Source: Takakia lepidozioides (Eukaryota; Plantae; Bryophyta). From it: 64,000 nt of DNA. Position 1 is the stretch's first letter. Every line of letters begins with the position of its first letter. Shown piece by piece: positions 2,164 through 41,870 of the stretch. The notes beneath the pieces are model-generated. The model searched no databases. It saw only the letters and a program-made list of their open reading frames with translations, and was not told where the DNA came from. Made by a program: the position numbers and the translations under genes. The stretch lies in NCBI GenBank assembly GCA_030704615.1, contig CM060731.1, forward strand, positions 7,006,001 to 7,070,000, read 5' to 3'.

Positions 2164-2170
2164 AAATAGC

Positions 2171-2524
2171 TGTGAAGTTAAATAAGCACAGTGTGAAACT
2201 AACTAGAATAAAGCTAGTTATTTATATTTAACACTTGGATTTAGGTCAAGTGTTAAATCAGGTGTCAAGTTTAGTTTGATACCTGAACCGTCTTATCTTC
2301 ACGAGAGCGTCAGTCGCGCAACTCATCTCTCTCGAGTTGAGCCTGTGCGACCGAGCTCCTTCACGCTTTAGAATCTGAGTGTGCTTATGTATGGAGTATA
2401 GGTTGTTGTGGGGTGGAGTCCCCATAGCTTGGGGTGCCCCTGGCTCGACTATTATCTTAAAGAGTGATAGCGATAGATTTCATGTTTCTTGTGTTAAGAG
2501 TGTGTGTCCTTTAGCTTTCTATCA
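2171..2524 (+). repeat. Repeat A1 (5' LTR-like, about 354 bp, TG...CA)
   Basis: About 97% identical to 13732-14086 by eye; homologous to 42717-43066 and 34523-34872. Confidence 0.93.
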
Positions 2525-2538
2525 CTCGAGAGAGATGA
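2524..2538 (+). promoter_or_regulatory. Primer-binding-site position, complementary to the LTR itself (putative self-priming)
   Basis: ACTCGAGAGAGATGA at the A1 3' end is the exact reverse complement of TCATCTCTCTCGAGT (2323-2337). No TGG-starting tRNA PBS. Same arrangement in copy 2. Confidence 0.7.
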
Positions 2539-3462
2539 CTCTATCTAGTTTTCCAGTGCTAAGCTAGATATGATGTTTTTGTTTTTTTAAGCATTATTAT
2601 AATATAGCTTGGTCACGGGGAGCAGAACAGGAAGGCGGAAACCATTCGAAGTGTTGCTGCAGCAGTTCAAAGCCAACAATAATCGGCCCCGGGGATGCCC
2701 GTTTGTTTGAGGCTGGTGGAAGCATTCGCAGGGGTCGCCTACACATTCTCATTTGGAGTGTGCGCTGCAGGTAATCCTGTTGCGGTGGGGTCCCTGGTGT
2801 CAAACCAGGCTGTTACGGTGGTAGGAGGGTCAGCGTGGCCGCGGCGGATGGTTTTGCTGCAGAGCTCGCAATTCCCAAGCGCGGTGGAGCAATATGTTGA
2901 AATTCCAGTAGTGCAAGCGTCATGAATGTGTGTTGCAGGTTGATTGGGTGGTTGATGGACTTGCGCCTCCGTGCAAGAATCTGAGAGAGACACAGATTAC
3001 TTGCCATGGCAGCTACATAAGGGAGAAAGTGACCTCGAGGATGAATATAAGAAGGGATATGCTCTGGAAGTCGCTTTCGCTCCTCAATAATTTCGAACGC
3101 AGAGAGTAGAAACAGCGTGTCATTTTGGTACCCGGCATGAAGACGACAGAGGTCGTGGCTCTGGCCTGACTCCCTACAGTAAGCAGGAAATATATCCTAC
3201 TTACAATCCCGGCAACAAATGGGTAAGAGCTTCGAAGGCTGGCCCAGATCGTTTGAACTTTGGACGGTCTGCAGACATATTTCTTGTTTTCGAGCAATGT
3301 GGCAGACAGCTGCTGTCATTCCAGCTGAGAAGGTGGATGTGATGTCCATGTAAGCATTAGCTATTCACAACCTACAACGTCTTCGTAGTCCACAGTCGAC
3401 TATTTGCCGTTCTCTTTCTGCCGCGGTTGCCAAATTGACCCGGCGATTAGGAGGCTGAAGCT

Positions 3463-3558
3463 ATGGCAGGAGTTGAGACAGGCCATGACGCACCAGCCAT
3501 GGTAGTGTCTGAAGGGAAGACTGTTGCAGTTATCATGGTCGGCGGTCCAACAAAAGGT
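3463..3558 (+). pseudogene. Captured fragment of GDP-mannose pyrophosphorylase alpha/KONJAC-type gene (N-terminus)
   Basis: Translates MAGVETGHDAPAMVVSEGKTVAVIMVGGPTKG; AVIMVGGPTKG is the GMPPA/KJC N-terminal signature. Confidence 0.7.
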
Positions 3559-4214
3559 GATCCAAAATCTCTTTGGTAGGTGGTGTGGAGCCATTCAGGC
3601 TATGAACGTGCGGCTCGAACTTTACGAGCCGATCAATGACCGGGCATGGGGGCTTATTGCACCATTGGGTGTAGATGCTCGGATTCTTGCAAGGACAGGT
3701 AATCGGGGGAGGCGAGAAGGTCGTATGCTTTCTCCACTTTCCCTTGCATCTGGACCCCGGAGGCCATCTCCATAACAAACGCCCTGTCACCTTTTAGGAG
3801 TGCAACTCCATCTTGCGCTGGGTGTAGTAGTTCGATTTTGAGAACTCCAGAGCAAAGCTTGCTGCCATGCTTCGTGACGCCGTGAGTGGGGAGTATAAGA
3901 CCTTGCCTAGAGGGATATTCATTTCCTCAAGTCGCTTCCTGGCATGACACAAGGCTTGCTCTTTGGGCATATCGGTGTCACCATCGAACCTGGTGAGAAT
4001 GTGACAGGGAGTAGCAGACAGGCCTGAGTTCGGGACAATTGGGGTCGAAGTTAGCACCTCACCGAGCGATTTATTGCACCCATGAGCAGGTTGTGTATGG
4101 CTCCTCTTTCGCTCCATCTAGGATGGGTTCCACGCCGAATGCCACTGGTTCAATGCCCTCTGCCCTATCGACCTGACAGGAGGCCAGAGCCTCGTACCTT
4201 CTAATCTCGCTCCT

Positions 4215-4403
4215 ATGAACTTCGTTCCTGCACCTGCGGAAAAGGGTGTCACAGGGTTTATGATCAACTCTCTTATGGGTGGAGTCTTTGCAGCTGTGTC
4301 TCAGACTGCTGCGGCTCCCATCGAGCGAGTGAAGCTTCTCACCCAGAACCAAGATGAAATGCTGAAATCAGGTCGCCTTGCAGAGCAGTTCACCAGTGTT
4401 TGA
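4215..4403 (+). pseudogene. AAC: Captured fragment of mitochondrial ADP/ATP carrier
   Basis: [49 protein letters not shown] matches the first transmembrane repeat of plant AAC; truncated. Confidence 0.9.
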
Positions 4404-4887
4404 AACACCTGTAGGTAAAATCCAGGGAATCTGTGAAAACTACATGGACGTGTTGGGAACTCGTAGGTGACTTGGGAACAGTTTTTGATGGCGAGAACGT
4501 TTTGGGTGTGAAAAATTAAAAGAAATTCGTTCTTTGATCTAATTTAAATTAGATAGAGCCTGTTTGGCCATAACTTTGGCCTACCAAGGCCGTTTGACCC
4601 AAAACTTGCACAGGGACCTACAGAAAGGGGAAATCTACCTATCTAGACCTGGTTTTAGTTTTTTGGACTCTGCTAAAAATCTATGGAATTTTTTGGGTGT
4701 GAGTGTGCTATGAAAGATCCACAATTCTGTTTCTAGAACCTGTTGTGGTCTACATGAGAGACAAATCTGTGGATGTCCTCCTTGTATGGGTGGGGGAAAT
4801 TAGGACGTAATTGAAGGGCGGGTCTCTTCTCTTAGCCTGTGCACCCAAGGGGACAAGATTTATGTTTCCCAAGGAACTCAGATTGAT

Positions 4888-5535
4888 TTGAGTAGAGAAC
4901 AGTTGGACGAGTTGATTGCATTCTGGGATTCAGGCATTAGCAGTAGACAACAAACTGCTGTAGTTGGCGTTGAGGGCCTCAATATTGCTTTGGACAGTCA
5001 AAACTCTGTTGGAGCCAGCAGTTCTGCAGCTGTAGGTGAAATACCAAAGTGGGTGAAAGCTAGGCTTGGAACACAGCCAAAGACAGCCCCGGGGACCAAG
5101 GTGTTCAGCCACAAGGCCGTGGTGTACTGGAGGAGAGGAGCAGGAGCTACACAAGTTTGTGCAATCAGACATGGTTGCAGCCGGAGACGCTCTGCACAAA
5201 GCAACCACGAGCGGGGGTTCATTAGCAATGACAAGTTTGTTCTGCGTGAAGGAGATGCAGTCATTCGCAATGAGGACACCCGCAACCGTCTCAAAGCTTT
5301 CGAGTTGAGAGACTATCAGACCCTACCTTTGTTTTCTTAAGTGTTCAATGAACGGGAGATAGGGGAGTATTGCTTTGTCTCTACCTGGCAGAAAGAGGAG
5401 GAGGGTTGGTTAGAGCGAGCTACTATAGCTTGGGATAAGGTTAGTGGCAGGTTTCTGGACATAGATATACCTCCTACACCTTACCATCATGCAGAGCGAG
5501 GCACTTTGAGAGAAGTCTGGCAGTTGATAGCATAG
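4888..5535 (+). pseudogene. Accessory ORF0 of the Gypsy element (unknown function), internal stop at 5338-5340
   Basis: The homologous ORF is uninterrupted in copy 2 (39857-40504). Confidence 0.65.
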
Positions 5536-6055
5536 ATCAGGATTAGATCTTGCTTGGTCGGGCTTCTATTCTTCCCCTCCCTCTCTTTAATATTTCCATT
5601 ACTTTGTACTTGTAGTTGCCAAAGCCTCTCTTGGTGGAGGCCAGTCAGTCCGGGGTTTTGGGCTGGGATATTCTGCAGGATCAGCATTGCAGATGGATTT
5701 TGGTGTGGGGGTGTTGATGTTTTGATTTCTTGTGTTTGGATCCCCCCCAACACCTACATGCTTGACTGTGCGCCATGTTGGTTTTGTGTGGGCGCTTGCT
5801 TTCATAGGGATTAGGCCGGATTTGATCACCGGTCAATCCTAGGGTATGCTGTCGGTGATGAGGCTGGAGTGATGACCAGCAAGACCACCAGTGTTTCTTC
5901 TATGGTGAGACTAGGTTGATGACCAGCCAACCATAGGAGTTCTTGCGGTGGGTGCAGGTGCAGGTGCCCTGAGCCATTGGGATATGACCCTTAAACTGCA
6001 ACAGGTGCCCACCCGTGTCACTATTAGAATTAGTACTAGAGCCTTATAGTGTCAC

Positions 6056-7700
6056 GTGGGGGAGGTGCACATTGTGAGTGTCATCACGGAGTTACCCAGG
6101 GGTTCTGAGGGGAGTACGGCTACAGGCAGTAGCAGTGAGAGTGGGTTCACCAGACGAGGTGTTCGTTTCAGACCACCTTCACCTCCACCCTCAACTAGTG
6201 CAGAGTCAGACACAGACTCGGAGGCTTCATCAACAGGGTGCAGTTTCATTCGCCATTGTTGTGGGACGACATGGAGGAGATGTATGGAGCTACCAAGGGG
6301 CCTCGTAGGTACTCTAGAGCTATGGGCACAATTGAGCTGGATGACTTTATCTAGGAGTTCGACAGTTGGTGTGATTTGCAGCAGATGCGCAATCCACAAC
6401 TGTTCACCCCATTCATGGCGTGGAAGGGACTGTTCCAGCATTTGGAAGGCCCGCCTATGGATGATTACCACGAGTTCAGGCGAGGACATGAAGCAAAGAT
6501 TGAGGAGTGGAGGATGTATTGGTCACCTGACTATGTCTCCATTACTCGAGGCACGACGCGACCAGTAGCTGCATCAGTACCAATATCTCCCACTGCCAGC
6601 ACTAGTACTGGAACAAGTAGTGCTGGTACTTCGGCAGGTGGTACCACTTCAAAAGGTGCTACTACTCCTCCTGCCACGACTACAACACATGTGCCTAGAT
6701 TCAACCCGGTGGTGGAGTTCTTCCAGGAGTTGCGGAGGAACTACCAAGGTGTACGGACAGAGAAGCTGCGAAGTTTGCAAGACTTCCAGCGCAAACCCAG
6801 TGAGAGCTTGCGAGAGGCCTACACTCGTATGAGGCGCTTGATAAGTGTGACCCAAGGGGTTACTGAAGCTCAGGCAATCCAGTTCTGGTATGGAATTTTG
6901 GACAAGGAGCTCAGGAGAAGGGTGCGGGATGCAACCCTGTTACAAGCAGCCCAACCCACATTAGCAGATGTGTTTCTGCTGGCTGAGCGGATTGAGCTCA
7001 ACATGGTGGAGGAGCGAGTTGTTACCATTGGATTTGGCAAAGACATGCCTGCACGAGGCGCAGCTGCCAGCCCACAGGCACAAGGGACTGCCCAACAGCG
7101 TGGTCAGGGGGGCAAGGTTTCCCAACCCAAGTTCCATGGAGCTTACAGGGGACCTCAGGTGCAGAGGCCCGTGGCATCTTTTGCAGGCCAACAACAACCA
7201 GGGGTGATATGTTGGACATGTGGAGGACCCCATGTCAAGAGAGATTGCCCAGAGAGTGGCAGAAGGCCGACACAAGCACAGCCTGCACAGTTGCAGTGTG
7301 GGCATTGTGGCAAGTATGGGCATGGAGATGCCCAGTGTTATGACTTGCATCTTGAGTTGCGCCCAGGCCAGTTCCAAGGGAACAATGGTGGCCGGGGGCG
7401 AGGTGGACCAGCCCAGAGAGGACGAGGTGGCCGGGCACGAGGTGCAGGCCAAGGGCAAGCTCAACATGGCCAAGGACGCGGAGGTCAGGGTGTTGACCAA
7501 GGCATGGCCAACCGGCTTCAGCAGCTAGAGCAGATGCTCACTGCCATGGCTACAGCTCAGGCGGTACGGCTCCCAGGCGGGATAGTCCACCTCCTGCGCC
7601 TGAGGGAGGAGATATGGGAGGCATGGGATTCATGTGCGGAGCAGCACTACCACTAGTGCAGGTGGAGTCTGCTGCAGCCGTGACTCGAGGAGCAGCACGA
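6056..7700 (+). pseudogene. gag: gag region (retrotransposon gag domain, two CCHC knuckles, RG-rich tail)
   Basis: LQDFQRKPSESLREAYTRMRRL gag motif; CWTCGGPHVKRDC and CGHCGKYGHGDAQC knuckles; frameshifted. Confidence 0.85.
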
Positions 7701-8213
7701 GTTTGAGCCACGAGGTGCAGAGGTGGAATTGAATCCACAGCGTGGGGAGGCAATCCGTTAGGCGAGGCTTCCTCAGTCATTCACATTGGCGGAGACAATG
7801 TCGACGCCATCCATGGCACCTAGTTCTCGCCCGACTGTTACCGAGGCGGAGGTTACTATGCCATTGGGGAGAGCTACACGTGCAGCACTGACACCTGCTA
7901 CCAAGGCTAGTGCAGCCGGTGTGTTGTTGGGGGCAGCCACCTCTGTGTGTCAAGCCCCATTGTTCTCGGCAACCATGATTGCGACGCCGGGGGTAAGACC
8001 AGCTGCAGTGTTCAGACTAGCAGCAACACTCTGTGAGAGTGGGGAGGTCACTTCATCTTCTGCAAGTTACTGGAAGGTGTAGTGGCAAGGGATCCTCGGA
8101 TTTGAGGGTCAAGACTGCCACGGCTGCGCCATGGCAAGCTGCAGCTGCCAGGTTGACGGAGCTGCCAACTAGGCCAACCTTTGAGCGCGCCATGGTGACA
8201 CCCTAGAGTTGTC

Positions 8214-10184
8214 TTGTTAGACAACCAGGATGACATTTACTCTTTGAGTGGACCGGCAGGCAAGAAGTACCGGCCACTGCGGGTCTTGTTGGACTCAGGA
8301 GCTCAGCCACTGATGTTGGGCAGAGCTGCTATTGCAGGTTTGGGCCTCATGGAGGCGGATATGGAGCCTTGTCCTTTCCAGATACAGACATCTCTGGGAG
8401 GATCAGAGCAGGCTCGGGGCATGACACGGCGTGAGTTGGCCATTAGACTGCAGCCGGATCATCCTATAGATGGCTCAGTGATGCGAGCCAAGGCCATTGT
8501 GACAGACGCAATCTCTTACGATGTCCTCGTTGGTGGGGCAGTGTTATATCCCATGGGCTTCACCCTGGACTTTTGGGAAGAGTCAGCATCCTACAGGCCT
8601 GGATGGCAGTTAGGGGATGGTCGTCGTGCACAGCTCCCTGTGACATTCATTGGGGGTATTGCGGCTGCCCAGCGGGGCAAGATGCCAACACTAGCCGCCT
8701 TTACAGGTGTAGTTAGTTGGCCTGGAGAGTTGCTGGTAGGCAATGCCCATGCAAAGGATGTGCCACCTCCAGCAGAGCAGGATGACATGCATGGTACGGC
8801 GGAATTGCCTGCCATGGTTGCTCACACTCCATTGTGGGGTACGGGCAAAGATTTGCAGCAGGCTGCTGATGGACGGGTGCAACAAGCCTGGGTGGACGCT
8901 TTCGTACCGTCAGGAGAGGAGGAGAGTGCGGTGATTGCACCAGGACCACCTCAGTTGTTGCCATTGGACACTACACTTCTTGTGTGGCAGTGCCCGGATG
9001 AAGGCATATGCCTTCTGGACTTGTTTGGCGGGATCAGCATTGGATTGGCTGCAGTACTGCAGGCAGGTGTAAGAGTTCGACGTTACCTATATGTGGAGAG
9101 GGATGAGACTGCAAGACACGTCTCACTGTGCCATGTTGCTCAGTTGGTACAGCAGTACCCTGATTTGTTGCTAGTGTCTGCAGTTCGTGGATACCAACAA
9201 GCCTTGCCAGCAGACATTTCGTTGCTGGGGGCGCAGGATTTGGAGCAGGTTGGCTCCATTGATCTGGTAGTGGCAGGTTGGCCCTGCCAAGGGCATTCAT
9301 CAGCCGGGCATGGCAATGGATTGCGAGACTCAATGACGGGTCTGTTTTGGGAGATGGTGCGGGTTTTGCACCACTTGCAGCTTCATCGAGCTGTATCTCC
9401 AGCATACATCTTGGAGAATGTGCCACTGATGGGTGATTCTCGAGCCAGGGTGATGGCTAGTGTGCATCAAGTCCGGTCGTGGCTTGGGTCAACAATGTTG
9501 CTGGATGCAGCTGCAGTGGGGTCACGGGCTCATCGTCCACGGCTATGGTGGACTAATTTGATGCCACCCGCACTGCTCAAGCGTGCATTTGATGGGGTGC
9601 AGCGGCCAGCACACCTCACAGTGGATAGCATTTTGGACACATGGAGGCAGTCTCAACGTGTGAGACACGATGACCGTTCGCCTTTGGCAGTGGTCAACAG
9701 GGTGGGTCAACCACGAGCAGCATTACCTACACTGCTCAGCTTCCCAGGATCCCATGCTTTTCGGGATGGTGGACCTGGCCTCTTGTGGGATAGCCAGTTG
9801 CAACAATTAGTGGAGCCCAATGCTAACGAGCGCAAGCGGGCAATGGGTTTTACCACTGGTACCACGGCGGTGCCATCTCTTTCTGAGGCATCACGTCGTC
9901 AGGTGTTGGGGCAAGCAATGGATCTCAATTGCTTGACCTGGATTATCAGCTTGGCTATGGCTGAGCAGCGCAGAGTACAAAGTACACTTCCCTTCATGGT
10001 CTCCCTGCCTACCGAGACGGTACAGGCAGCGAGTGGGGGCGAGCAGGTGAGGACCATGAGGTGCAGGCCGCATCCATGGCACACGTGGGGTGCTCGAGGT
10101 TCAGAAGGAGTCGGCAGCCAAGGCGGCGGTGATGGATCAGGTTGGGATTTTCTCGGGTTGAGGAGGTCCTCAAGGATGGGATGA
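8214..10184 (+). CDS. Aspartic protease plus C5 DNA cytosine methyltransferase (DNMT3-like) part of the polyprotein
   Basis: VLLDSGAQ protease motif. DNMT domain about 9004-9960 with motifs I LLDLFGGIS, II YVERD, IV GWPCQGHS (Cys 9285-9287), VI ILENV, VIII AHRPRLWWTN, IX ERKRAMGF, X RRQVLGQAMD, all in one open frame. Confidence 0.93.
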   Translation: MLDNQDDIYSLSGPAGKKYRPLRVLLDSGAQPLMLGRAAIAGLGLMEADMEPCPFQIQTSLGGSEQARGMTRRELAIRLQPDHPIDGSVMRAKAIVTDAISYDVLVGGAVLYPMGFTLDFWEESASYRPGWQLGDGRRAQLPVTFIGGIAAAQRGKMPTLAAFTGVVSWPGELLVGNAHAKDVPPPAEQDDMHGTAELPAMVAHTPLWGTGKDLQQAADGRVQQAWVDAFVPSGEEESAVIAPGPPQLLPLDTTLLVWQCPDEGICLLDLFGGISIGLAAVLQAGVRVRRYLYVERDETARHVSLCHVAQLVQQYPDLLLVSAVRGYQQALPADISLLGAQDLEQVGSIDLVVAGWPCQGHSSAGHGNGLRDSMTGLFWEMVRVLHHLQLHRAVSPAYILENVPLMGDSRARVMASVHQVRSWLGSTMLLDAAAVGSRAHRPRLWWTNLMPPALLKRAFDGVQRPAHLTVDSILDTWRQSQRVRHDDRSPLAVVNRVGQPRAALPTLLSFPGSHAFRDGGPGLLWDSQLQQLVEPNANERKRAMGFTTGTTAVPSLSEASRRQVLGQAMDLNCLTWIISLAMAEQRRVQSTLPFMVSLPTETVQAASGGEQVRTMRCRPHPWHTWGARGSEGVGSQGGGDGSGWDFLGLRRSSRMG

Positions 10185-10379
10185 TGGGGCAGGGTGAGAC
10201 ATTGTCACTGACAGAGGAGGCAGTGGTCACTGCTCAAGAGGTTGCCGCATAGCAACCACGGGACGCGTCTTCTACCTCTAAGCCTGCTGGACTCAAGGTT
10301 GCAGTCACGGAGGACAACTGGGAGCCTGATGTTGGACCTATAGTCACCGGAGGAGAGAGACGACGTATACGGCGGTTCT

Positions 10380-13065
10380 TGAGGGCTTACAGGAACTGCT
10401 TTGCCTTCAGTTTGAAGGACTTAGGAGCACTGAAGGGTCAAGAGATTCGCATTGAATTGGCTACTGACACGCCAATCTTTCGGAGACCCTATAGATACAG
10501 TGACATGGAGAGGTCCTTGATTCAGATGAGAACTCACGACCTTTAGGAGGCTGGTTTGGTGGAGCTATCTGGGGAGAGTATGCTTCAGCCACAGTGATGC
10601 CAGCCAAGAAGGATGTCTATGGCAATTGGACGGAGAGACGTATGTGCGGTGATTACCGGCCTGTAAATCGTCAGACCAAGTCCGATAGGTATGCCATGCC
10701 GACACCAGAGGAGATCTTTGATGCCATTGGGCATGCCAAGGTCTTTAGCACGTTGGATTTACGATCCGGATATCACTAGTTGCCGATCAAGGAGGCGGAT
10801 AAGCAGAAGACGACATTCTGGGGGATCAATGAGCACGGGAAGGATGGCCTATACCAGTGGCGGTTCTTACCATTTGGGCTTAAGAACGCTCCTGCTGAGT
10901 TTCAAAGAGTCATGGACAGGATTCTAGCAGGGGTGGAGTTTGCTCGGTGCTACATAGATGACATCATCATCTTTAGTGCTACGGTGGAAGAGCATGAGAG
11001 ACACCTTCAGGGGGTATTTGAGCGCTTGAGGGCGCACGGATTGAAGTTACATCCGGGGAAGTGCAAGTTTTTCCACAACCAGATTGAGTATCTGGGTCAC
11101 ATGATATATCCTGGAGGATTAGGGGTACAGCAGACTAAGGTAGAGTCCATTGCACAGGTTCCACGCCCCACAGATGTGAGCCGAGTTCGAGCTTTCATGG
11201 GGTTAGCAAACTATTATAGACGGTTTGTTAAGGGATTTAGTGCCATTGCAAAGGCTCTAACCAAGCTGACCAAGGTGGACCAGGAGTGGCAGTGGGAAGA
11301 TGAGCAAGAACAAGCTTTTCAAGAGCTCAAGGCGAGGTTGACCTCGGCGCCCATCTTGAGACGACCTATCAGGGGGCGTCGTTTTCAGCTGCATACAGAT
11401 TGGAGCATGCTGGGGCTTGGAGCGGTGCTCACACAGGTGGATGATGAGGGAAGAGAGTTCGTAGTGGCTTATGCTAGCCGCTCGAACAACGCTGCAGAGT
11501 CTAAGTATAGCTCATATGAAGGAGAATGCTTAGCTGCAGTGTGGGCCGTGGCACACTTCAGGTGCTATCTATACGGCAATCTCTTCACCCTTGTCACGGA
11601 TCACCAACCACTCAAGTGGTTGATGGAGTCAGACAAGCTTACGGGGAAGCTTGCACGGTGGGCACTCATCCTTCAAGAGTATGACTTTCAGGTTGTGCAT
11701 CGACCGGGTTTGGTCAATCGCAATGCAGATGGGTTGAGTCGCAATCCATGCACGAGCCAGCAGGATGACACTGGAGCTCGGTGGCATGGTGAGACGGATG
11801 AGGAGATGGTGCCCGGATGGCATGCATCTGCATTTCTGTGTATCTTGGCAGCGGAAGGCCAGGTTGGACCTGCAACAGGGATGACTGTAGATCAAGTGTC
11901 TGAGGACCCTGAGGCCAGCAATGAGCAAGGTGGCGCCAAATATATACATGAGGATTCAGTTGTGTTGGACTATCTTCGCACTGGAGACACGGCAGCCACT
12001 GTGACTGCCAAGGAGAGGGATCGGATCCTACAACAAGCCAAGAGGTTCAAGTGGGAGGGGACACACCTGCTCCGAGTGTGGGAGGATGGTCGAGTGAGGA
12101 TTGTGCCTCACCCAACACAGCGGGCACGGTTAGTGCGGCATGCCCATGAGGAGTTGGGGCATTTTGGGGTGCGACGCACTCATAGTCTACTGCAGGGGCA
12201 GTATTGGTGGCGTGGTATGCACACAGAGGTGCAACAATTTGTGGCTAGGTGCATGGTGTGTGACAGGGTGCGTGCTTCATTCAACGCCCCTACTCCACAA
12301 TTGCACCCTCTTCCGATCATGGGATTGGGCTACAGGTGGAGTCTTGACTTCCTAGGGCCGTTGCCACTGACCATGCGCCACAACAAGTACGTGTTGGTGA
12401 TGGTGGAGCACTTCTCCAAGTGGATTGAGTTGGTTCCATTGCCTGATAAGGCTAGTGAGGGAGCTGCGTATGCATTCTTGGATTGTGTGCTTAGCCGATT
12501 CGGTGCTCCAGCTGAGGTACTCACGGACCAAGGGAGAAAGTTCTTGGGGGAGTTTCAGGCTTTGTGTGACAAGGCCTTGATAGACCACCGCACCACTTCT
12601 CGGGATCATCCTGAGGCCGATGGCTTGGCAGAGAGAGTTGTTCAAACAGTAAAGAGGGGTTTGCGCAAGTATGGCTTGCAGAAGGGACACCTAGGAGATT
12701 GGGACCTTCAGTTACCCTGGTTAGCCATGGGCTACAGGTTCAGCAAGCAAGCATCACTTGCCTCCTTCTCACCATACTTTCTTCTCTTTGGCCGAGAGCC
12801 GGATTTGCCTACATCCATTTGCAGAGAAGCTGCTACAGTTCTTAACCTTGACGATCCGGACGTGTGGGCACGTGCATGTGAGCAGCGTGCAGAGTTGTTC
12901 AAGAAAGTCATGCCCATGGCTTTCGAGAACCTTGCCATTGCACAACACCGTGATACGTTGAGGTATGCTACCATACGTGGTGGGGGCTATCGTCCTGGGG
13001 TTCGGAGATTCAACCCTGGTGACTATGTCTATCTGCAGCAACTGCTCCTACGACCTTGGATGTGA
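10380..13065 (+). pseudogene. pol: pol: reverse transcriptase, RNase H, integrase (HHCC + DDE)
   Basis: RMCGDYRPVN, LDLRSGYH, LPFGLKNAP, YIDD (10951), LHTDWS and VTDHQPL (RNase H), HEELGH...CMVC, WSLDF, LTDQG, GLAERVVQ. Stops near 10546 and 10777. Confidence 0.95.
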
Positions 13066-13385
13066 CTGCAGGACGTGTTATTTTGAGGGTTCGAGAGGTC
13101 TTGCCCTCAGGCGTCTTGGTCTTGGAGGGTCGGGATGGCATAACTTGGAAGGACCATGTGCGTAATTGTGTGCCATGTCACCTTCCGAATGTCGATGGCA
13201 GGATTGACCCAAACCTGGCAGTGGTATCTGCAAGTTTGAGGTGCATGTTGTGTGGGTCTGCTAGAGGGGCAGCCACCATGCTGGTGTGTGATCGATGCTC
13301 TAGAGGTTGGCATATGGGATGCTTGACTCCACCTCTTGAGATGGTTCCGGATGGGGATTGGTTATGTCCACATTGCATTGGATAG
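13056..13385 (+). CDS. Integrase C-terminal extension with PHD finger (frameshifted from pol near 13040)
   Basis: CMLC...LVCDRCSRGWHMGCLTPPLEMVPDGDWLCPHC is a canonical C4HC3 PHD. Copy 2 reads through this junction (QQTAPTTLDVT). Confidence 0.9.
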   Translation: MDVTAGRVILRVREVLPSGVLVLEGRDGITWKDHVRNCVPCHLPNVDGRIDPNLAVVSASLRCMLCGSARGAATMLVCDRCSRGWHMGCLTPPLEMVPDGDWLCPHCIG

Positions 13386-13633
13386 TGGGAGTGGATACAA
13401 CCATGGAAGGCTAACAAGCAACGCAAGGCCCAGCTATAGGAGACCTTGAATACACGAGGTCCTGGCTCAAGTTCACAGATTGCAAGACGGCGACTAACGA
13501 TGGGGCTACTCTTGTACCCGGCCTCTTGGTCAATAGAGTTTGAGTACAATAGGGACAGTGATAGAGGACTTAGTACGGCTGTGGCTATTACATCTTGTAG
13601 CTATCTGGAGTTAGAGGGACCTATCCACCAGCT

Positions 13634-13644
13634 AGGGGGGCGAT
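13634..13644 (+). promoter_or_regulatory. Polypurine tract abutting repeat B1
   Basis: AGGGGGGCGAT directly before TGTGGCAGAC; same in copy 2 (34960-34970, -). Confidence 0.7.
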
Positions 13645-14172
13645 TGTGGCAGACTACTTTATTGTGCATATATGTGTGGTGTGGTTTGGACATCGATGTA
13701 GTTGTGTAGCGATACGTATGCGCACGACAGCTGTCAAGTTAAATAAGCACAGTGTGAAACTAACTAGAATAAAGCTAGTTATTTGTATTTAACACTTGGA
13801 TTTAGGTCAAGTGTTAAATCAGGTGTCAAGTTTAGTTTGACACCTGAACCGTCTTATCTTCACGAGAGCGTCAGTCACGCAGCTCATCTCTCTCGAGTTG
13901 AGCCTGCGTGACCGAGCTCCTTCACGCTTTAGAATCTGAGTGTGCTTATGTAGGGAGTATAGGTTGTTGTGGGGTGGAGTCCCCATAGCTTGGGGTGCCC
14001 CTGGCTCGACTATTATCTTAAAGAGTGATAGCGATGGATTTCATGTTTCTTGTGTTAAGAGTGTGTGTCCTTTAGCTTTCTATCTATTGTGGCAGACTAC
14101 TTTATTGTGCATATATGTGTGGTGTGGTTTGGACAGCGATGTAGTTGTGTAGCGATACGTATGCGCACAACA
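13645..14172 (+). repeat. 3' terminal block B1 (13645-13729) - GC - A2 (13732-14086) - T - B2 (14088-14172)
   Basis: 85-bp B repeats (TG...CA) flank A2; the B1/A2 junction is the palindrome GACAGCTGTC. Confidence 0.93.
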
Positions 14173-14449
14173 TAGCCCCAACTGGTTTGATTCATTCTGA
14201 GCCTGCATGTTTGAATGACAAGCTGCCTCTTGAATCTGAAGGTACTGGTGCCTTGACATCCCCTCTTACCAGTAACTTGCAGTTGAGAGAGAGAGATGTT
14301 CCTTGTAGTCCTAGTCTTGAGAAGGGAAAGTGTGTTGTTGTGGAGGACTCTGAACCTGGTTTGAGGCCTTCATTGAATTTCCAAAATGTTGGGCTCTCTC
14401 ATGTGCCTGTAAAGAGAGTACATGCAGCTAGCTTATCTACTGGAAGGTC

Positions 14450-14821
14450 TATCGAGCGGCTTTTACTCACCCATCCCTTTGCTATCCGAGGTGGGAACTC
14501 CAAGATAGAAGAGTTGGAAATCTCTAAGCACTTAGCCGGCTCAGAACAATCAGTCATGACCTACAGCTAGTGTATCATGTGGGTGTTTCCTATTTGTACT
14601 CCTTCCCACATTCATGTTAGCGAGTTACCTTACTATCTGCAATTAAGTACCAGTTTGCTTCAGAATTCTATCAAGTTCCATCCATTCATTCCACAATTTC
14701 ACTCAGGTCTCTCTACACAGTGTGAGTATGAAGTATGTATCAGATTAATATCTATCAAGTATCAAGCTGAAGCCATGGTGTCTCTAATCTACTCTACATT
14801 ACAATTCTACAGCTTGCATTC
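14450..14821 (-). mobile_element. Partial, diverged LTR of the Tat/Ogre-like family, interrupted by the MULE-like element end
   Basis: Homologous to 60419-60790 and to the reverse complement of 28550-28924. Confidence 0.8.
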
Positions 14822-23703: not shown

Positions 23704-25050
23704 AATGCGAATGCGGCGCCGCATTTCCGTTAAGTACCATCACGAAGCTACACATCCGTACTTGTTGGAAGAAAATGCGGCACCGCATTTCCGTTCCACC
23801 TTCACATACCTTAGTTGTTGAACGGAAATACGGTGCCGCATTTCCGTCCCACAACTCCATGTATGAGATACAAAAGGGAAATGCGGCGCCGCATTTCGTT
23901 CTGGAATGTCGAAAGGTACGATTCGGACGGAATGAGGCACAACATTTCAGTTCCCGTGGTTCATGATTTCAATGTGAACGGAAATGCGGTACCGCATTTC
24001 CGTTCCCCCTTCACATACGTTAGTTGATGAACGGAAATGCCGTGCCACATTTCCGTTCGGGAAAGTATAGAGGTCTCACCTGGATAGAAATGCGGTGCCG
24101 CATTTCCGGTCTCGAAAGTTTGAAGGTCTCACATGGATGGAAATGCGGCACCACATTTCCGTAGCACAGCTCCAGGCCCCATATACAAACGGAAATGCGG
24201 CGCCGCATTTCCGTTCTAGAATGTCGGAAGGTGCGACTCGGATGAAATGCGGTGCCGCATTTCTGTTCCCGTTGCGCACGATTTTCAGTCAGACGGAAAT
24301 GCGGTACCGCATTTCCGTTCTGTAGAGTATTAACGTCTGACGCTGGCAGAAATGTTGTGCCGCATTTTCGTTCCACAGCTCCATGCCTCACATACAAACG
24401 GAAATGCGGCGCCGCATTTCCGTTTTGGAATGTCGGAAGGTGCGACTCCGACGGAAATGCGGTGCCCGCATTTCCGTTCTGGAAATGTTGGTAGGGTGCG
24501 ACTCGGATGGAAATGCGCTGGCCGCATTTCAGTTCCGATGGTTTTCACGATTTCGTCAGAACGGAAATGCGGTACCCGCATTTCCGTTCTGGATAGTATG
24601 ATGTCTCAGCGGTCGGAATTGCGCTGTCTTCAAGCTCGGAATCGCACTCGGCTCCATGCATCAGATACAAATGGAAATGCGGTGCCGCATTTCCGTTCTG
24701 GAATGTTGGGAAGTGCGACTCCGACAGAAATGCAGTGCCGCATTTCTGTTCCCGTTGTTCATAATTCTCAATCAGAACGGAATGCGGGTACCGCATTTCT
24801 CGTTCCCTTCACATACCGTGCTTGTTGGATGGAAATGCGGTACCACATTTCCTTATTGGAGAGTATGAATGTCTTTTAAGGACGGAAATTGTTGCAGCAT
24901 TTCTATCCCTCACTCATGCATCAGATACAAATGGAAATGCGGCGCCCGCATTTCCCGTCTGAATGTCGGAAAGTGCAACTCGGACGGAATGTTGTCCGGC
25001 ATTTCTGTTCCCTTGTTCATAATCTCATAGAAACGGAAATGCGTACCCGC
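23704..25050. repeat. Array of about 26 palindromes (AAC)GGAAATGCGGCGCCGCATTTCC(GTT), period mostly 52-53 bp, running into the gap
   Basis: Palindrome starts at 23824, 23877, 23929, 23980, 24033, 24086, 24139, 24191, 24243, 24295, 24348, 24400, 24453 and onward; spacers fall into a few recurring types. Confidence 0.93.
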
Positions 25051-26849: not shown

Positions 26850-29800
26850 GATATCCACCGTTGGAAATGGAAGGGATTGGGGGATCAAAGCAGGAGATCG
26901 GCGGCAAGACCAGGGAGGGGGATGGACGACCGGGGGAGCGCCATGCAGTGGACCATCGCGCAAAACAATCGGACGGCGGGGGGACGGCCACATGATGTTG
27001 AAGAGGGCCAAGGGGATCAGTCCTCGGGGGGAGCAGGGAATCGGGAACGGATCGACATTGGGGGTGCCACCACGTGGTCGAGGGGGATCGACAGGGCGGC
27101 GACCCGGGGGGGGGGGTGGTGTCGGGGTCGACGACGAGGGGACCGCGACGTGGCCCACGGGTCATGGAGGGCACCGTGGAGCACCACGTGACGGAAAATG
27201 CGGGGATGGGGATCAGTCCCCGAATTGGAGGAGGGGATCAACCGAGGCGGGGGGAGCGACAGTGCGGGGATTGCGCGCCTCTGACCGTTGGAGGGATTGA
27301 CGGTGGAGGGGATTGCGTCGTGGCGTGTCACTGTGAACGGCAATTGTCGCGGCCCTTTGCCTTGAGGGCAGGGGGTCAGGACACATGAGGGGCTGCCCCT
27401 GTGGTGGGGGCAGCGGCAGCGATAGGTATGGGGGGGGCTGAAGCACCCTTGAGTGCCCAAGGCACTCAAGGAGGCGGAGGCGCTCACTAGGTGGAGCCCC
27501 GCACACCGGGTTGCGGTGGGGGTGGCTCCACAAGGGGTGGTGGTAGCTTAGCGGGACTTAGTGGGGGTGGCATAGGACTCACCATGGGGGCGGAGACCTC
27601 GTGGTGGGAGTCGTGGGGAGTCTTGGGACTCATCACGGTCCATAGGGGCCGTGGTGAGTGGGCCAAGACTCACCGCGACTCATCACCGGGAGTCAAGGGT
27701 TTTCGTGGTGGTTCGCCATAAAATGGCATGGCTGGTTGTGAAACCCCCGCGGACAGCTACAGAAGTATATATAGGGAGTAGTAACCCCGAGAACGGTGCA
27801 AGCCCGTTGGTGACCAAAAACTAGTGAGTAAGCGAGCGAGCCGGAAAGCGACCAAAGAGTGGGGAGCTGTTCCGGACTGCCAACTACCAAAGGGAATTCC
27901 CGCTAGTTCCAAATCGGTGGAGGGTTATTTGGGAGCACAAAGGGGGACCGTTATGCCCCGGTGAGCAGCCGAAGCTCCAAGTTGGCCCGGCGGCCTGTTA
28001 GAGGACTGTCGGGGACTTAGACACTTATACGGGATCTGTAGGGTACCCTTAATTTTTGCACAGACTGAGACCAACAGGAGCCTTAGGGGTGACAGCAGCG
28101 CACTGTAGAGGGGGGTTACACAGCCCAACACAGCCCGTCACAGTCGTCACAGCCGACACAGCCATCCCAGCCGACACAGCCCGGCACAGCCGACACAGCC
28201 ACACAGCCAGTCACAGCCCGACACAGCCAAACACAGTCGCAGAGCCAGTCACAACCCGTCACAGTTTCACACAGCCAGTCACAGCTTGACACAGCTGTCA
28301 CGATCATAGGGAACGGAGAGCAGGACAGGGAACGACTGTGGGAAACAACACCTGCGAAGGGAACATGTTAGTTCACAGACGACGGTTAGTGAGGGAAACG
28401 GTTAGAACCACGGGTAGGAAGATAAAGGGAGAAGCGGGGAATTTTGGGGAGAATTCGGAGGAGGACTTCTTGGTCATGGAGGAGAGGGGATCGGGCAGAG
28501 ATGAAGAACGGAAGTGAAGATAGAGAGATGATGAGTAGATGCTTGATATATGCAAGGCTGTAATGATATTGTAGAGCAGATTAGAGACACAATGGCTTCG
28601 ACCTGATACCTGATAAATCATAATCGGATACTTTTACGATACAATCACACTGTGTAGAGAGATCTGAGTGAAGCTGTGGAATGAATGGATGAGTTGATGG
28701 AATCCAATAGATTGATAAAGCAAACTGATACTTAATTATCAATGGTAAGATAGCTAACATGAATGCCAAAAGGGAAACAAATAGGAAACACCCCCATGAT
28801 ACACTAGCTGTAGGTCATGACTGATTGTTCTGCGCGGGCTGAGTACTTAGAGATTTCCAACTCTTCTATCTTGGAGTTTCCGCCTCGAATAGCGAAGGGA
28901 TGGGTGAGTAAAAGCCGTGCGACACGGCCAGGTTGGGAGTCAGGCGCGCGCATCATACCGAGTAACTATGACTTGAGGGGGAGCTTACCGAAGTGAGGGG
29001 GAGTGGGGGATCACTCCCGCCGTGGACGGGGGATCAACCCAGTTGCGGGGGAACGGCTCCGATGGGATGAGGGCATCGATGGCGGGGGGAGCACATGTGG
29101 CGGTGGACGTGTCATCGGGCTTTCATCCGGCCGTCGTCCATCCACTGCGCGGGAGGATGGCGGGGGATGAGGGGCGGATGACACAGAAAATCCATTATTT
29201 TTAAGGTTGGATGGATGCGCAGGGGATCGACGACTCGGGGGAGCAGCACATGGCGGGCGACCTGGGTTGGGGGATCATTCCCGGTCTGGATGGGGGATCA
29301 ACCCAGGTCGGGGGGAGCGGCGACGTCTCGAGGGATCGCGCCGTGGATGGGAGGAGGGGATCACGGCGGGGGGAGCGCGCCACGTGCCGGCCGATGGGTG
29401 GAGGGGGATCAATCAACCGCATTGGACGGGGGATCAACCAAGGGGGGGGGGGGGGGGGGGGGGGGATCGGCGACGTCTCGGGGGATTGGGCGTCGATGGG
29501 AAGAGGGGATCGACGACGGGGGGGGAGCGGCACGTGGCTTGTCAGTGTCATCGGCCCTTCATCCGGCCGTCGTCGATATCCTCCTGCGTGGGAGGATGGC
29601 GGGGGGATGAGGGCCCCACGACCCACATCATCCATTGTTTGTGAGGTTGGATGGATGCGCAGGGGATCGACGGTTCAGGGGAGAGGCACGTGGCGCGATT
29701 AGGGGTGGGGGATCACTCCGGTCCGGAGGGGGGGTCAAGCCAGGTCGGGGGAGTGGCGACGTCTCGGGGGAGCGCGCCGTGGATGGGACGAGGGGACCGA

Positions 29801-32713: not shown

Positions 32714-35217
32714 GCTCGCTCTGCCCTTTCCTCCTCTATCTTCTCTCCCCTTTTGTACAAGAAGGATAGCGTGGTTGGGTCAGCACGGGTACCAGTGTTG
32801 TGTGGGTTCTGCCTTTTTAAGGAACCGGGGTGAGCTGCAAGGGAAAGGTGGGTGGGGTCGTGGGGTCATGGCTGATGACACTTATCTGGGTAGTTGCATA
32901 ATCGGCCATCCCAGCCGATTCAGCATGCCGGCCTGAGAATTAGTCTAAAAAAGCACGCCACACCTGATTTTAACGTACCCTGCCCCTTTGACTATTATTA
33001 CCGCTAGTGTCATAGGGGAGCACATTGCCACAATACTCAAATTCTCAAAGAAAACCTCAAACTTTCGTTAAAATACACCACCCCACTCCTACACACCCTA
33101 CACTTCGCAACAATTACGTCACTTACACCCTTAATCCTCAACAAAAGAAATATTGAAAGTGGCCAGCTTGCCACTACGTAACTGGTTCTCGTTCTGATAG
33201 AGCCCACCCCCGGGGGATTGGTATCCCGTGAGCATGCTCACGTGAGCACAACCCGCGGTCAAAGGGGTTAAATGTTTTCAAACCGCGATCATAGGAATTA
33301 CACGTTAACAGGCACGGTGCATATGAGTACCTTCAAATTTATTTCCTCAATGCGAAAATAACTTTTTTAGGGCTTAAACTGCCGATACCCGGACTGAAAA
33401 CCACAATTTTTGTTTTTCTGGGGTATCCAATTCGCATAACGTGAGGAACCCCATGCCTATAGGGTAACATGACTATCTTGTATAGGTGTTACTTGTTTCT
33501 TAAGTGATGCTATGAGGGCTATGTGAGAAGTTAAAAATAGTTTCGCAAAGTTTTTAGTTTCTCAATTTAGTTTTGCTGGAGAATATTCGAAAGGCATCTA
33601 GGGAATATCCTGAATATTCGCTTGTGCTCACCTCAGCATGCTCACATGCTACCCAACCTCCCCACCCGAAAGGAGGTTGGGTAGCGTGAGCACTAGTGTT
33701 ATTATTTCTGGCGAAATTTCGCACTTTTTCGACCTCAAAAATCAAAATCGAATATTCTGTCATAAATTCCCTGTTTTCTCATGGATGAAATCGCCAAAAT
33801 TCTCAAAATAAAATAAAAATCTTGGATGAATTCGCCTAATATGGATGAAAGTACAGAGGAGGATGATTCTGTCCAAATTTCAGTGGATGAGCAGAAAATA
33901 TGGCTATTTCCTGCAAAACTCAGTAGCAAGTCCTGTTCTTTTCAAAATTTGAAAAAAAACACACTGGTGAGCACGCTCACGCTGCTGTGCGCGTGCTCAC
34001 GTGACCTCAAGAAAAAATGCCCGAAAATTCGCGACTATTACCGAAAAGATGTTGCGGCGAAACTAAAATTGGAAATTTGTGCTCACGGGACCAAATTGTG
34101 CGCATGTGAGCAGACTTGTGCTCACATGAGCACAAACCTCACGTAGATGGGTTAGTCACCCTATCAAATCAATTCGTTAGGTTTAGGTTATGTTAGGTTA
34201 GATTAACCCTTAAGTGCCCAGACTCATTTTCACCCTCTCGTGGAAAAATCTACCCCACCTTCTACCACAAAAAGTTTCATAAAAATCCAACCGCCAGATT
34301 CAAAGATTATAAATGTAGAGTGGGGACCAAAAATTTGCTTCCGTAAATAATGGAAGCCAAAAAAACCAATTTTTAGCTTGCATCTGGGCAGTTTTGATTT
34401 TTTTTTTTTTTAAGAGTCTCGGGAATTCAGTTCCCTTGTCGTGCGCATACATATCGCTACACAACTACATCGCTGTCCAAACCACACCACGCATATATGC
34501 ACAATAAAGTAGTCTGCCACAATGATAGAAAACTAAAGGACATTGTTCACACAAGAAACATGAAATCCAACACCATCACTCTTTAAAATAGTAGTCAAGC
34601 CAGGGGCATCCCAAGCTATGGGGACTCCACCCCACAACAACCTATACTCCCTACATAAGCACACTCAGATTCTAAAGCGTGAAGGAGCTCGGTCGCGCAG
34701 GCTCAACTCGAGAGAGATGAGCTACGCGACTGACGCTCTCGTGAAGATAAGACGGTTCAGGTATCAAACTAAACTTGACACTTGATTTAACACTTGACCT
34801 AAATCCAAGTGTTAAATACAAATAACTAGCTTTATTCTAGTTAGTTTCACACTGTGCTTATTTAACTTGACAGCTGTCGTGCGCATACGTATTGCTACAC
34901 AACTACATCGCTGTCCAAACCACACCACACATATATGCACAATAAAGTAGTCTGCCACAATCGCCCCCCTAGCTGGTGGATAGGTCCCTCTAACTCCAAA
35001 TAGCTACAAGATGTAATAGCCACAGCCGTACTAAGTCCTCTATCACTGTCCCTATTGTACTCAAACTCTATTGACTAAGAGGCCGGGTACAAGAGTAGCC
35101 CCATCGTTAGTCGCCGTCTTGCAATCTGTGAACTTGAGCCAGGACCTCGTGTATTCATGGTCTCCTATAGCTGGGCCTTGCGTTTCTTGTTAGCCTTCCA
35201 TGGTTGTATCCACTCCC

Positions 35218-38200: not shown

Positions 38201-39336
38201 TGGCTTGCAAAAGATGCTACTGGCCTCTGCACCTGAGGTCCCCTGTAAGCTCCATGGAACTTGGGTTGGGAAACCTTGCCCCCCTGACCATGCTGTTGGG
38301 CAGTCCGTTGTGCCTGTGGGCTGGCAGCTGCGCCTCGTGCAGGCATGTCTTTGCCAAATCCAATGGTAACAACTCGCTCCTCCACCATGTTGAGCTCAAT
38401 CCGCTCAGCCAGCAGAAACACATCTGCTAATGTGGGTTGGGCTGCTTGTAATAGGGTTGCATCCCGCACCCTTCTCCTGAGCTCCTTGTCCAAAATTCCA
38501 TACCAGAACTGGATTGCCTGAGCTTCAGTAACCCCTTGGGTCACACTTATCAAGCGCCTCATACGAGTGTACGCCTCTCGCAGGCTCTCACTGGGTTTGC
38601 GCTGGAAGTCTTGCAAACTTTGCAGCTTCTCTGTCCGTACACCTTGGTAGTTCCTCCGCAACTCCTAGAAGAACTCCACCACCGGGTTGAATGTAGGCAC
38701 ATGTGTTGTAGTCGTGGCAGGAAGAGTAGTAGCACCTTTTGAACTGGTACCACCTGCAGAAGTACCGGCACTACTTGTTCCACTACTAGTGCTGGCAGTG
38801 GGAGATATTGGTGCTGATGCAGCTACTGGTCGCGTCGTGCCTTGAGTAATGGAGATGTAGTCAGGTGACCAATACATCCTCCACTCCTCAATTTCTGCTT
38901 CATGTCCTCGCATGAACTCGTGGTAATCGTCTATAGGCGGGCCTTCCAAATGTTGTAACAATCCCTTCCACGCCATGAATGGGGTGAACAGCTGTGGATT
39001 GCGCATCTGCTGCAAATCACACCAACGGTCGAACTCCTAGATAAAGTCATCCAGCTCGATTGTGCCCACAACTCCAGAGTACCTGCGAGGCCCTTTGGTA
39101 GCTCCATACATCTCCTCCATGTCGTCCCACAACAATGGCGAAGCAAACTGCACACTTGTTGATGAAGCCTCCGGGTCTGTGTCAGACTCTACAGTAGTTG
39201 AGGGTGGGGGTGAAGGTGGTCTGAACCAAATACCTCGTCTTGTGAACCCACTCTCACTGTTACTGCCTGTAGCCGTACTCCCCTCAAAACCCTTGGGTAA
39301 CTCCGTGATGACACTCACAATGTGCACCTCCCCCAT
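35218..39336 (-). pseudogene. gag-PR-partial DNMT fused by deletion to integrase C-terminus/PHD
   Basis: ORF 36695-38101 runs from the CCHC knuckle into protease in one frame. DNMT motifs I-VI (GWPCQ, ILENV) join integrase YGLQKGHLGDW near 35920. RT and RNase H are absent. Confidence 0.9.
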
Positions 39337-39856
39337 GTGACACTATAATGCTCTAGTACTAATTCTAATAGTGACACGGGTGGGCACCTGTTGCAGTTTA
39401 AGGGTCATATCCCAGTGGCTCAGGGCACCTGCACCTGCATCCACCGCAAGAACTCCTATGGTTGGCTGGTCATCAACCCAGTCTCACCATAGAAGAAACA
39501 CTGGTGGTCGTGCTGGTCATCACTCCAGCCTCACCACCGACAGCATACCCTAGGATTGACCGGTGATCAAATCCGGCCTAATCCCTATGAAAGCAAGCAC
39601 CCACACAAAACCAACATGGCGCACAGTCAAGCATGCAAGTGTTGGGGGGGATCCAAACACAAGAAATCAAAACATCAACACCCCCACACCAAAATCCATC
39701 TGCAATGCTGATCCTGCAGAATATCCCAGCCCAAAACCCCGGACTGACTGGCCTCCACCAAGAGAGGCTTTGGCAACTACACGTACAAAGTAATGAAAAT
39801 AGTAAAGAGAGGGAGGGGAAGAATAGAAGCCCGACCAAGCAAGATCTAATCCTGAT

Positions 39857-40504: not shown

Positions 40505-41003
40505 ATCAGTCTGAGTTCCTTGGGAAACATAAATCTTGTCCCCTTGTGTGCACAGGCTAAGAGATGAGACCTGCCCTTCAATTACGTCCTCATTTCCCCA
40601 GCCATAGATAGGTAGATTTCCCCTTTCTACAACTATCCCCTCAAAAACTGTGTCAAACGGAGTTCATTTGCCAAAGATATGACCAATTACGCTCTAACTC
40701 ATTTAAATTAGATCAAAAAGGTTTTTTTTTTTTTTTTTTTTTGACACCAAAACGTTCTCCCCATTAAAAGTTGTTCCCAGGTTTCATTTGTGGTTACAGG
40801 CGCACCACCACAGGCTTGCTTTCTTAGTGAGCTGCTTTGCTCCAGCCAAGATCCGTGTTCTGCTCCAACAACGACTTTCGAGCTCGGGTGTATGGCTGTG
40901 GCGATGGCCTGTGCAGTGTCACGCATCTCGGCAGCACCTGCATTGGCCGTCTCGCACTCCTCCCTAGCTTCTTCTGATCCGAGAGAGAGAGCAGGCAGGA
41001 GCC

Positions 41004-41781: not shown

Positions 41782-41870
41782 ATTTTGCTGGCGGGACATT
41801 TCAAGGGGAAGTGTGTCGTCTTTCTGAAGCAGGTGGAATCTGGCCTTCTTCTGGTTAAAGGCACTTTCCA
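41782..41870 (+). pseudogene. RPL6: Captured 60S ribosomal protein L6 (eL6) fragment
   Basis: ILLAGHFKGKCVVFLKQVESGLLLVKGTF matches the eL6 KOW region. Confidence 0.82.

Follow-up and report, generated by a model that had tools for sequence, protein, structure and literature searches.

A Ty3/Gypsy family with split direct repeats in Takakia lepidozioides: predicted integrase cleavage of a palindrome inside the long terminal repeat after likely joining of the cDNA ends

A stretch of 64,000 nucleotides from Takakia lepidozioides (NCBI GenBank assembly GCA_030704615.1, contig CM060731.1, positions 7,006,001 to 7,070,000 of the forward strand; the whole stretch is referred to here as the window) contains two copies of a Ty3/Gypsy retrotransposon in which two repeat blocks, A and B, are arranged as A at the 5' end and B-GC-A-B at the 3' end. 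Our preferred reading, which we regard as probable, is that the integrase of this family is predicted to cut a palindrome inside the long terminal repeat (LTR) after the ends of the complementary DNA (cDNA) have likely been joined. It starts from features observed directly, namely the repeat layout, the ends of the insertions, their target-site duplications (TSDs), the positions of the primer-binding site (PBS) and purine tract, and the conservation of all of these in divergent families. An insertion that ends inside the predicted LTR would mean that the cDNA ends must be joined, and the internal palindrome cut, before or during integration. To our knowledge, all textbook LTR retrotransposons and retroviruses integrate linear cDNA with LTR ends, and circles count as dead ends.

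Repeat finding and direct reading of the letters both gave the layout A1...B1-GC-A2-B2 in the two window copies (Table 1), with A1/A2 and B1/B2 pairs that are 96–98% identical inside either copy (97% and 98%, respectively, in copy 1), integrated ends of the form TGT...ACA and the palindrome GACAGCTGTC (GACA-GC-TGTC) at the B1/A2 junction. An initial annotation of the window had described this arrangement, with the duplications TAGC and CCCT lying outside A1 and B2, and was correct on these points; the extra T that it placed between A2 and B2 of both copies occurs in copy 1 only, and A2 of copy 2 directly abuts B2. The two TSDs are perfect over 4 bp and independent of each other (chance 1/256 each) and the same layout was found in 19 further distinct insertions from other samples, which rules out chance as an explanation and confirms the layout and TSDs of the two copies as real.

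The further insertions came from a pol profile search of metagenome contigs, which yielded 80 related loci that were sorted by layout after comparing each locus with itself and mapping the A and B sequences specific to each family. The pol sequences of these relatives are 46–74% identical to that of the window and fall, by their repeats, into at least four families with B of 87–176 nt and A of about 280–355 nt. A 3' end consisting of polypurine tract (PPT), B, two spacer nucleotides, A, B and flank was found at 21 distinct insertions, comprising the window copies 1 and 2 (W1, W2) and 19 metagenome loci (designated by L numbers: L004, L006, L008, L009, L010, L012, L016, L025, L030, L033, L038, L052, L060, L061, L062, L065, L068, L072 and L076). 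Duplicates were not counted (L007 and L036, the same as L008; L017, as L016; L075, as L072; L014, as L006; L074, as L073; L069, as L067), and seven loci with B partial, at the contig end or on the other strand were unscorable (L021, L054, L055, L056, L064, L067, L080). The exact DNA pattern of the B/A junction had no match in the metagenome contigs, and the pol search of viral contigs returned no loci.

On the 5' side, 13 distinct ends could be read (W1, W2, L006, L008, L018, L019, L025, L032, L058, L060, L061, L067, L077), and in all of them the flank is followed by A, beginning with TGTCATG or a transition variant thereof. The conventional form, B-GC-A at the 5' end, occurred in none of the 13, and conventional copies with BA at both ends, which the initial annotation had named as contrary evidence, were thus not encountered. 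The other permutation of the unit, A-B-A-internal-B, for which that annotation had suggested a search, would place A-B-GC-A at the 5' end and was likewise seen at 0/13 ends, an outcome not expected if a symmetric 2-LTR circle were opened at random. Seven of the nine elements with both ends have a perfect 4-bp TSD (W1 TAGC, W2 AGGG, L006 AAGG, L018 TACA, L025 CCAC, L060 AACC, L061 AATC), for which the chance of at least seven in nine is about 5e-16; the duplication of L008 matches at 3/4 positions, and L077, where the two sides do not match, may be a recombinant or chimeric contig.

These counts bear on two simpler explanations. A conventional Gypsy element with A-B as its LTR could have been rearranged after insertion, so that the 5' LTR lost its B and a stray B was added before the 3' LTR, and A2-B2 taken alone does resemble a normal 443-bp LTR of the TG...CA type; however, the layout recurs across families, in 21 distinct insertions that differ in their flanks and TSDs, A-B stands at the 5' end in 0/13, and the PBS abuts A, not B, while the purine tract abuts B, not A. 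This explanation, which we consider very improbable, is already contradicted. Least likely of all is an assembly artefact in which the assembler mis-joined repeats: metagenome assemblies do collapse or mis-join repeats, and the single-B contigs considered below may be such collapses, but two copies lie in one genome window with unique flanks and matching TSDs, 19 further insertions lie on separate contigs with unique flanks, and assembly of the A/B adjacency requires reads that contain it.

The extent of the LTR in the cDNA was deduced from the priming signals. Directly after A1 of both window copies stands a 15-nt PBS that is the exact reverse complement of a stretch 153 nt into A, where the chance of one fixed 15-mer matching is about 3e-7. 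As in Tf1/sushi elements, the PBS after U5 (the unique 5' region of the LTR) has its complement within the element's own LTR, at the predicted 5' end of the transcript, and not in a transfer RNA. Tf1 itself has ordinary identical LTRs, unlike the window element. Complementarity between self-primer and PBS is present in L006 (17 nt), L008 (11 nt), L060 (10 nt) and L061 (10 nt), 164–184 nt into A, with letters unlike those of the window, i.e. the two sites covary, and this covariation across families supports the placement of the PBS, and hence the end of U5, in every family. Predicted folds of the RNA from R (the repeated region) through U5 to the PBS also pair the self-primer with the PBS in the window element and in L006, as a consistency check only, the RNA 5' end having been chosen by the analyst. 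Contigs of run X7, guessed to be RNA, give almost no cover over 1900–2320 and cover from 2321 onward, a pattern that does not count as evidence for a transcript start.

At the other side of the element, a G-run purine tract lies directly 5' of B1 in 20/21 insertions and is decayed in the remaining one (L062). The PBS adjoins A, not B, at every 5' end that includes a leader, and the purine tract adjoins B, not A. Under the standard rules of reverse transcription, U5 ends at the PBS and U3 (the unique 3' region) begins after the purine tract; since the PBS immediately follows A and the purine tract immediately precedes B1, the predicted LTR of the cDNA is B-GC-A. The placements of primer site and PPT in the initial annotation both held, and its derivation of a B-GC-A LTR, with the integrated form as a circular permutation opened at CA-GC-TG, follows from these positions. 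In a run with another organism label (X8), a 5-kb contig tracks window positions 8695–13649 at about 96% identity and continues in unrelated letters from 7 nt into B1, so close relatives of the coding part exist elsewhere with a different LTR; the departure within B1 is a hint of the kind expected if a fast-evolving LTR starts there.

The two junctions within the 3' end were then compared across the insertions. At the B/A junction, ACA and TGT/TAT are separated by exactly 2 nt in 21/21 insertions, the spacer being GC in 10/21 and AC, AT or, in L076, TC in the others, and in L006 the palindrome at this junction is perfect across 16 bp. In nine loci (L004, L010, L012, L033, L060, L061, L062, L065, L072) the spacer GC and the TG beside it are often replaced by AC, AT or TA, all of them transitions and such as would be expected from deamination of methylated cytosines in a CAG/CTG context. 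At the A/B junction, the predicted end of the LTR is joined bluntly and exactly to the predicted LTR start in 9/20 scorable insertions (L072 has no A1 of its family to define the end of A and was excluded from this score), while length changes are present in 11/20, as against 0/21 at the B/A junction. They consist of one added nucleotide in W1, L012 and L076, one lost in L009, L010 and L033, 19 added in L004, 147 lost in L025, and complex changes by duplication or deletion in L038, L062 and L068, where the 5-nt duplications just inside A of L038 and L068 might be inherited.

The difference between the two junctions is significant by Fisher test (p = 5e-5; 0.0013 when the three 1-nt deletions are set aside), and since decay after insertion should strike both junctions equally, it argues that the B/A junction is templated and the A/B junction made anew, imprecisely, in each cycle. 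To judge from these letters, the A/B junction behaves like an end-joined junction, as do the retroviral 2-LTR circle junctions that arise from end joining. The extra G of L012 is the base 5' of B1 and the extra T of L076 is the first PBS base of its family, which is what incomplete primer removal would give. In L025 (positions 13027–13056 of that locus) the loss starts exactly at the intact end of A, which is joined to the last ~27 nt of B with 147 nt of B missing, and the element still ends in ACA with its B end intact and the perfect TSD CCAC; this junction looks like one formed after resection of one cDNA end.

The mechanism that we propose would proceed as follows. By standard reverse transcription rules, the RNA would extend from inside A1 to inside A2, and the double-stranded cDNA would be (B-GC-A)-PBS-internal-PPT-(B-GC-A), whose ends would not serve as integrase substrates. 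The integrated form A-internal-B-GC-A-B is not obtainable by integrating the ends of (B-GC-A)-internal-(B-GC-A), which is the reason for invoking joining and opening at the palindrome. In a first step the blunt ends, i.e. the end of A and the start of B, would be joined to give the A/B junction, in a 2-LTR circle or a topological equivalent. The integrase would then nick each strand of the PBS-side LTR's palindrome 3' of CA, yielding two 3'-processed, recessed CA-3'OH ends, each with a 5' GC overhang, and strand transfer would insert A-internal-B-GC-A-B with a 4-bp duplication and loss of the GC. The loss of GC and the TG...CA ends are explained in this scheme because nicking after CA leaves a normal strand-transfer substrate.

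Several points weigh against this reading. The closed circle and the linear cDNA ends are deduced, and the transcript start and poly(A) site are predictions. A symmetric 2-LTR circle has two identical palindromes, of which only the PBS-proximal one appears to be used, given the 0/13 count for the alternative (p about 1e-4 at a 50:50 choice, or about 0.02 if half of such copies have since collapsed via their tandem A repeats); this one-sided permutation makes a simple circle model insufficient. The claim of the initial annotation that the circle is the productive substrate is partly supported, being favoured by the A/B length changes and weakened by the single permutation. The one-sidedness might arise if the PBS-side LTR became double-stranded first and were captured and cut by the integrase before the other LTR was finished, and with such early capture the cut could precede the joining. 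Furthermore, at nine distinct 3' ends the flank comes after a single B (L015, L018, L022, L041, L046, L059, L070, L073, L077; L018 with a perfect TSD, L077 without), which could reflect a one-LTR intermediate, cuts at both palindromes, B1xB2 deletion or assembly collapse, and the 3' ends of four loci are irregular (L011, L037, L040, L063). All examined copies are old (repeat pairs 79–98% identical) and most are frameshifted, and metagenome contigs may be chimeric. Retroviral integration through the circle junction was itself proposed in the 1980s and later set aside in favour of linear DNA.

In L063, positions 3361–3878, the sequence immediately 3' of A2 is the first 180 nt of A in inverted orientation, beginning at the self-primer complement; a chimeric contig or an aberrant snap-back product may account for it. 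Inverse PCR (polymerase chain reaction) for a B2-GC-A1 junction, considered as a test for circles, is non-discriminating, that junction being identical to the internal B1-GC-A2.

The main rival to joining of the cDNA ends is that reverse transcription itself yields a linear A...B-GC-A-B cDNA, on whose ordinary ends the integrase acts with no host joining, whether by read-through RNA that includes A2-B2, by RNA 3'-end priming or by an extra template switch from the right cDNA end onto B. Such routes are directional and would naturally explain why a single permutation is found, and the 1-nt additions at A/B in W1, L012 and L076 resemble end-to-end template switching, of which reverse transcriptases are capable. 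Nevertheless, the conserved, covarying self-priming site and the purine tract are the classical signals and lead to a B-GC-A LTR, the A/B junction, if templated, would be expected to match B/A in stability yet carries indels in 11/20 insertions against 0/21, cutting at an internal TG would still be required at the left end, and no 3' priming signal is seen after B2, where all the flanks differ. On balance we judge a polymerase-only origin unlikely.

In its coding content the element is a plant-type Ty3/Gypsy family with gag, protease, methyltransferase, reverse transcriptase (RT), ribonuclease H (RNase H), DDE integrase and a plant homeodomain (PHD) finger. The Pfam order in copy 1 is RVT_1, RT_RNaseH with RT_RNaseH_2, Integrase_H2C2 and rve (10780–13065); the copy is frameshifted and not intact, as the RT region is read in three frames. 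The order methyltransferase, RT, RNase H, integrase is also found by Pfam in L006 and L008, and the PHD finger is kept in L006 with none detected in L008. The closest named relatives of pol are all from liverworts (Riccia 78%, Calypogeia 76%, Marchantia 76%), proteins of Klebsormidium and Closterium are 41–48% identical to the window pol, and the methyltransferase domain is also carried by the Marchantia relative with 76% pol identity and by the Closterium relatives. The order RT–RNase H–integrase, the TG...CA termini, the short TSD and the presence of PBS and PPT are those of Ty3/Gypsy elements; identical full LTRs at both ends are lacking, with A only at the 5' end and B-GC-A-B at the 3' end (21 insertions).

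Since A1...B1-A2-B2 is the textbook layout of the DIRS/PAT/Ngaro group (as described in PMC8969392), an element of that kind, or a non-autonomous passenger mobilised by a tyrosine recombinase in cis or in trans, has to be considered, but we hold this to be highly unlikely. No Pfam match to a tyrosine recombinase (Phage_integrase) was obtained in the scanned open reading frames (ORFs) of the window element (16 picked from those of at least 90 amino acids, either strand) or of L006 and L008 (plus-strand ORFs of at least 110 amino acids, minus one nested L008 ORF), and an H2C2 plus rve integrase is present. The insertions also have 4-bp TSDs and TG...CA ends, while DIRS elements are described without TSDs (PMC8969392). 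The likeness to the DIRS order (PAT-like, Ngaro) extends to the A1-internal-B1-A2-B2 form, in which the integrated copy permutes the unit B-A and a joined-end intermediate is implied; the difference lies in the enzyme, a tyrosine recombinase there and a DDE integrase here.

The split-repeat layout itself is already in print: KnitGypsy-Dnmt3 of Klebsormidium nitens is given a DIRS-type repeat structure together with Gypsy-typical domains in the legend to Fig. 4c of de Mendoza et al. 2018 (PMC5890265), and resembles the window element in having a Gypsy-type pol with a cytosine methyltransferase inside (PMC5890265). The K. nitens proteins are 42–48% identical to the window pol, as against 76–78% for those of liverworts. 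Term searches of the main text and three supplement files of PMC5890265 found neither 'circular' nor 'palindrom', and no analysis of TSDs, primer site or mechanism for KnitGypsy-Dnmt3. Literature searches on split repeats in retrotransposons and on permuted or circular integration of LTR elements gave no DDE-integrase case beyond PMC5890265, and a 2026 preprint on adenine methyltransferases mentions streptophyte Gypsy-DNMT3 in passing only. A layout with split repeats is taken to mark elements that use a tyrosine recombinase and lack TSDs (PMC8969392), and self-priming has been described in Tf1/sushi and some plant lineages (PMC6317226).

Retroviral integrases can cleave the palindromic LTR-LTR junctions of 2-LTR circles, as reported for foamy virus (PMC1180852) and human immunodeficiency virus type 1 (PMC1905944, PMC4372172), and the CA-NN-TG palindrome of the present family is comparable in presenting two att (attachment) ends head to head, where nicks after CA would give processed ends. 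In the retroviruses, the palindrome arises only on end ligation, has a 4-nt spacer and belongs to a side route, whereas in the present family U3 of every LTR already contains it, with a 2-nt spacer, and its use would be the sole route to the insertions observed. What appears to be new is the proposal that the LTR is permuted and bears a palindromic att site in its interior, along with the conservation of self-priming, the spectrum of junctions and the one-sided permutation. The layout is general for a widespread streptophyte Gypsy lineage; an integration route through joined ends and an internal palindrome is not established for such elements.

A broader proposition, on which we find the evidence evenly balanced, is that in a streptophyte-wide DDE-integrase lineage, from Klebsormidium to liverworts, the integrase ends have been relocated into the LTR interior, where they form a head-to-head palindrome, making cDNA-end joining and internal cleavage obligatory in every transposition. 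If so, the lineage would be a natural, directional version of the abandoned retroviral circle-junction model and a DDE element convergent on the DIRS repeat architecture, with integrase cleavage of a palindromic att junction as a normal, selectable step; the spectrum of blunt joins, 1-nt additions and deletions would preserve, as a fossil record, how DNA ends are joined in these plants. For annotation, finding split direct repeats is not enough to diagnose a tyrosine-recombinase element, programs that look for LTRs as two identical terminal repeats will set the ends of this abundant family wrongly, and insertion dating should use the A1/A2 and B1/B2 pairs instead of "LTR pairs".

Table 1. Positions of the two element copies and their parts in the window (minus-strand parts of copy 2 are numbered in the direction of the element).
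Feature	Position	Strand	Remarks
Copy 1, left TSD TAGC	2167-2170	+	Matches 14173-14176
Copy 1, repeat A1	2171-2523	+	Starts TGTG; 97% identical to A2; predicted end of U3 plus R-U5
Copy 1, predicted self-primer, 15 nt	2323-2337	+	Predicted transcript start; complementary to PBS
Copy 1, PBS (Tf1-like self-priming type)	2524-2538	+	Directly after A1; same in copy 2
Copy 1, private leader insert	2620-4500	+	Approximate bounds; mitochondrial-carrier gene fragment, ORF 4122-4403
Copy 1, gag-like ORF with zinc knuckles	6355-7656	+	Pfam Retrotrans_gag, weak, E 0.0019
Copy 1, protease-like region plus C-5 cytosine DNA methyltransferase domain	8199-10184	+	PF00145, E 3.3e-11
Copy 1, RT, RNase H, integrase (H2C2 zinc finger plus rve DDE core)	10253-13065	+	Read in three frames
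Copy 1, PHD finger	13023-13385	+	C-terminal end of pol; PF00628, E 1.4e-11
Copy 1, polypurine tract AGGGGGG plus CG	13634-13642	+	Directly before B1
Copy 1, repeat B1	13643-13729	+	Ends ACA; predicted start of U3
Copy 1, palindrome across B1/A2 junction	13726-13735	+	Predicted integrase cutting site
Copy 1, GC spacer of B1/A2 junction	13730-13731	+	
Copy 1, repeat A2	13732-14084	+	
Copy 1, extra T at A2/B2 junction	14085	+	Predicted joint of two cDNA ends; not in copy 2
Copy 1, repeat B2	14086-14172	+	Ends ACA; right end of insertion
Copy 1, right TSD TAGC	14173-14176	+	
Copy 2 including TSDs	34433-43070	-	Shorter than copy 1
Copy 2, TSD	43067-43070 and 34433-34436		AGGG on minus strand (CCCT on plus)
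Copy 2, A1	43066-42718	-	
Copy 2, PBS	42717-42703	-	
Copy 2, leader insert region	40740-42625		
Copy 2, ribosomal protein eL15 fragment	41969-42337	-	Sense to element
Copy 2, ribosomal protein eL20 fragment	40968-41420	+	Antisense to element
Copy 2, B1	34961-34875	-	
Copy 2, GC	34874-34873	-	
Copy 2, A2	34872-34524	-	
Copy 2, B2	34523-34437	-	Directly adjoins A2, without extra T

The leader is common to both window copies up to ...CTTGGT, after which different inserts of ~2 kb stand at the same place. In run X1 the summed word depth of the copy 1 insert is 257–417, compared with at least 53,000 in all other bins. The inserts represent host genes with high expression (mitochondrial carrier, eL20 and eL15), suggesting that host transcripts or DNA were captured at a fixed site in the leader.

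Elsewhere in the window, positions 48896–50859 hold a tandem array of at least 12 copies of a unit of about 116 bp, with 60–97% identity to the reference copy, and a cluster of short repeats in a GC-poor stretch at 23766–24854 has the palindromic motif GGAAATGCGG..CCGCATTTCC in each repeat. Dispersed direct and inverted repeats of 89–99% identity (14452–14621, 28518–28922, 60475–60822, 27996–28363, 55943–56450 and 61178–61288) point to further repeat families in the window.

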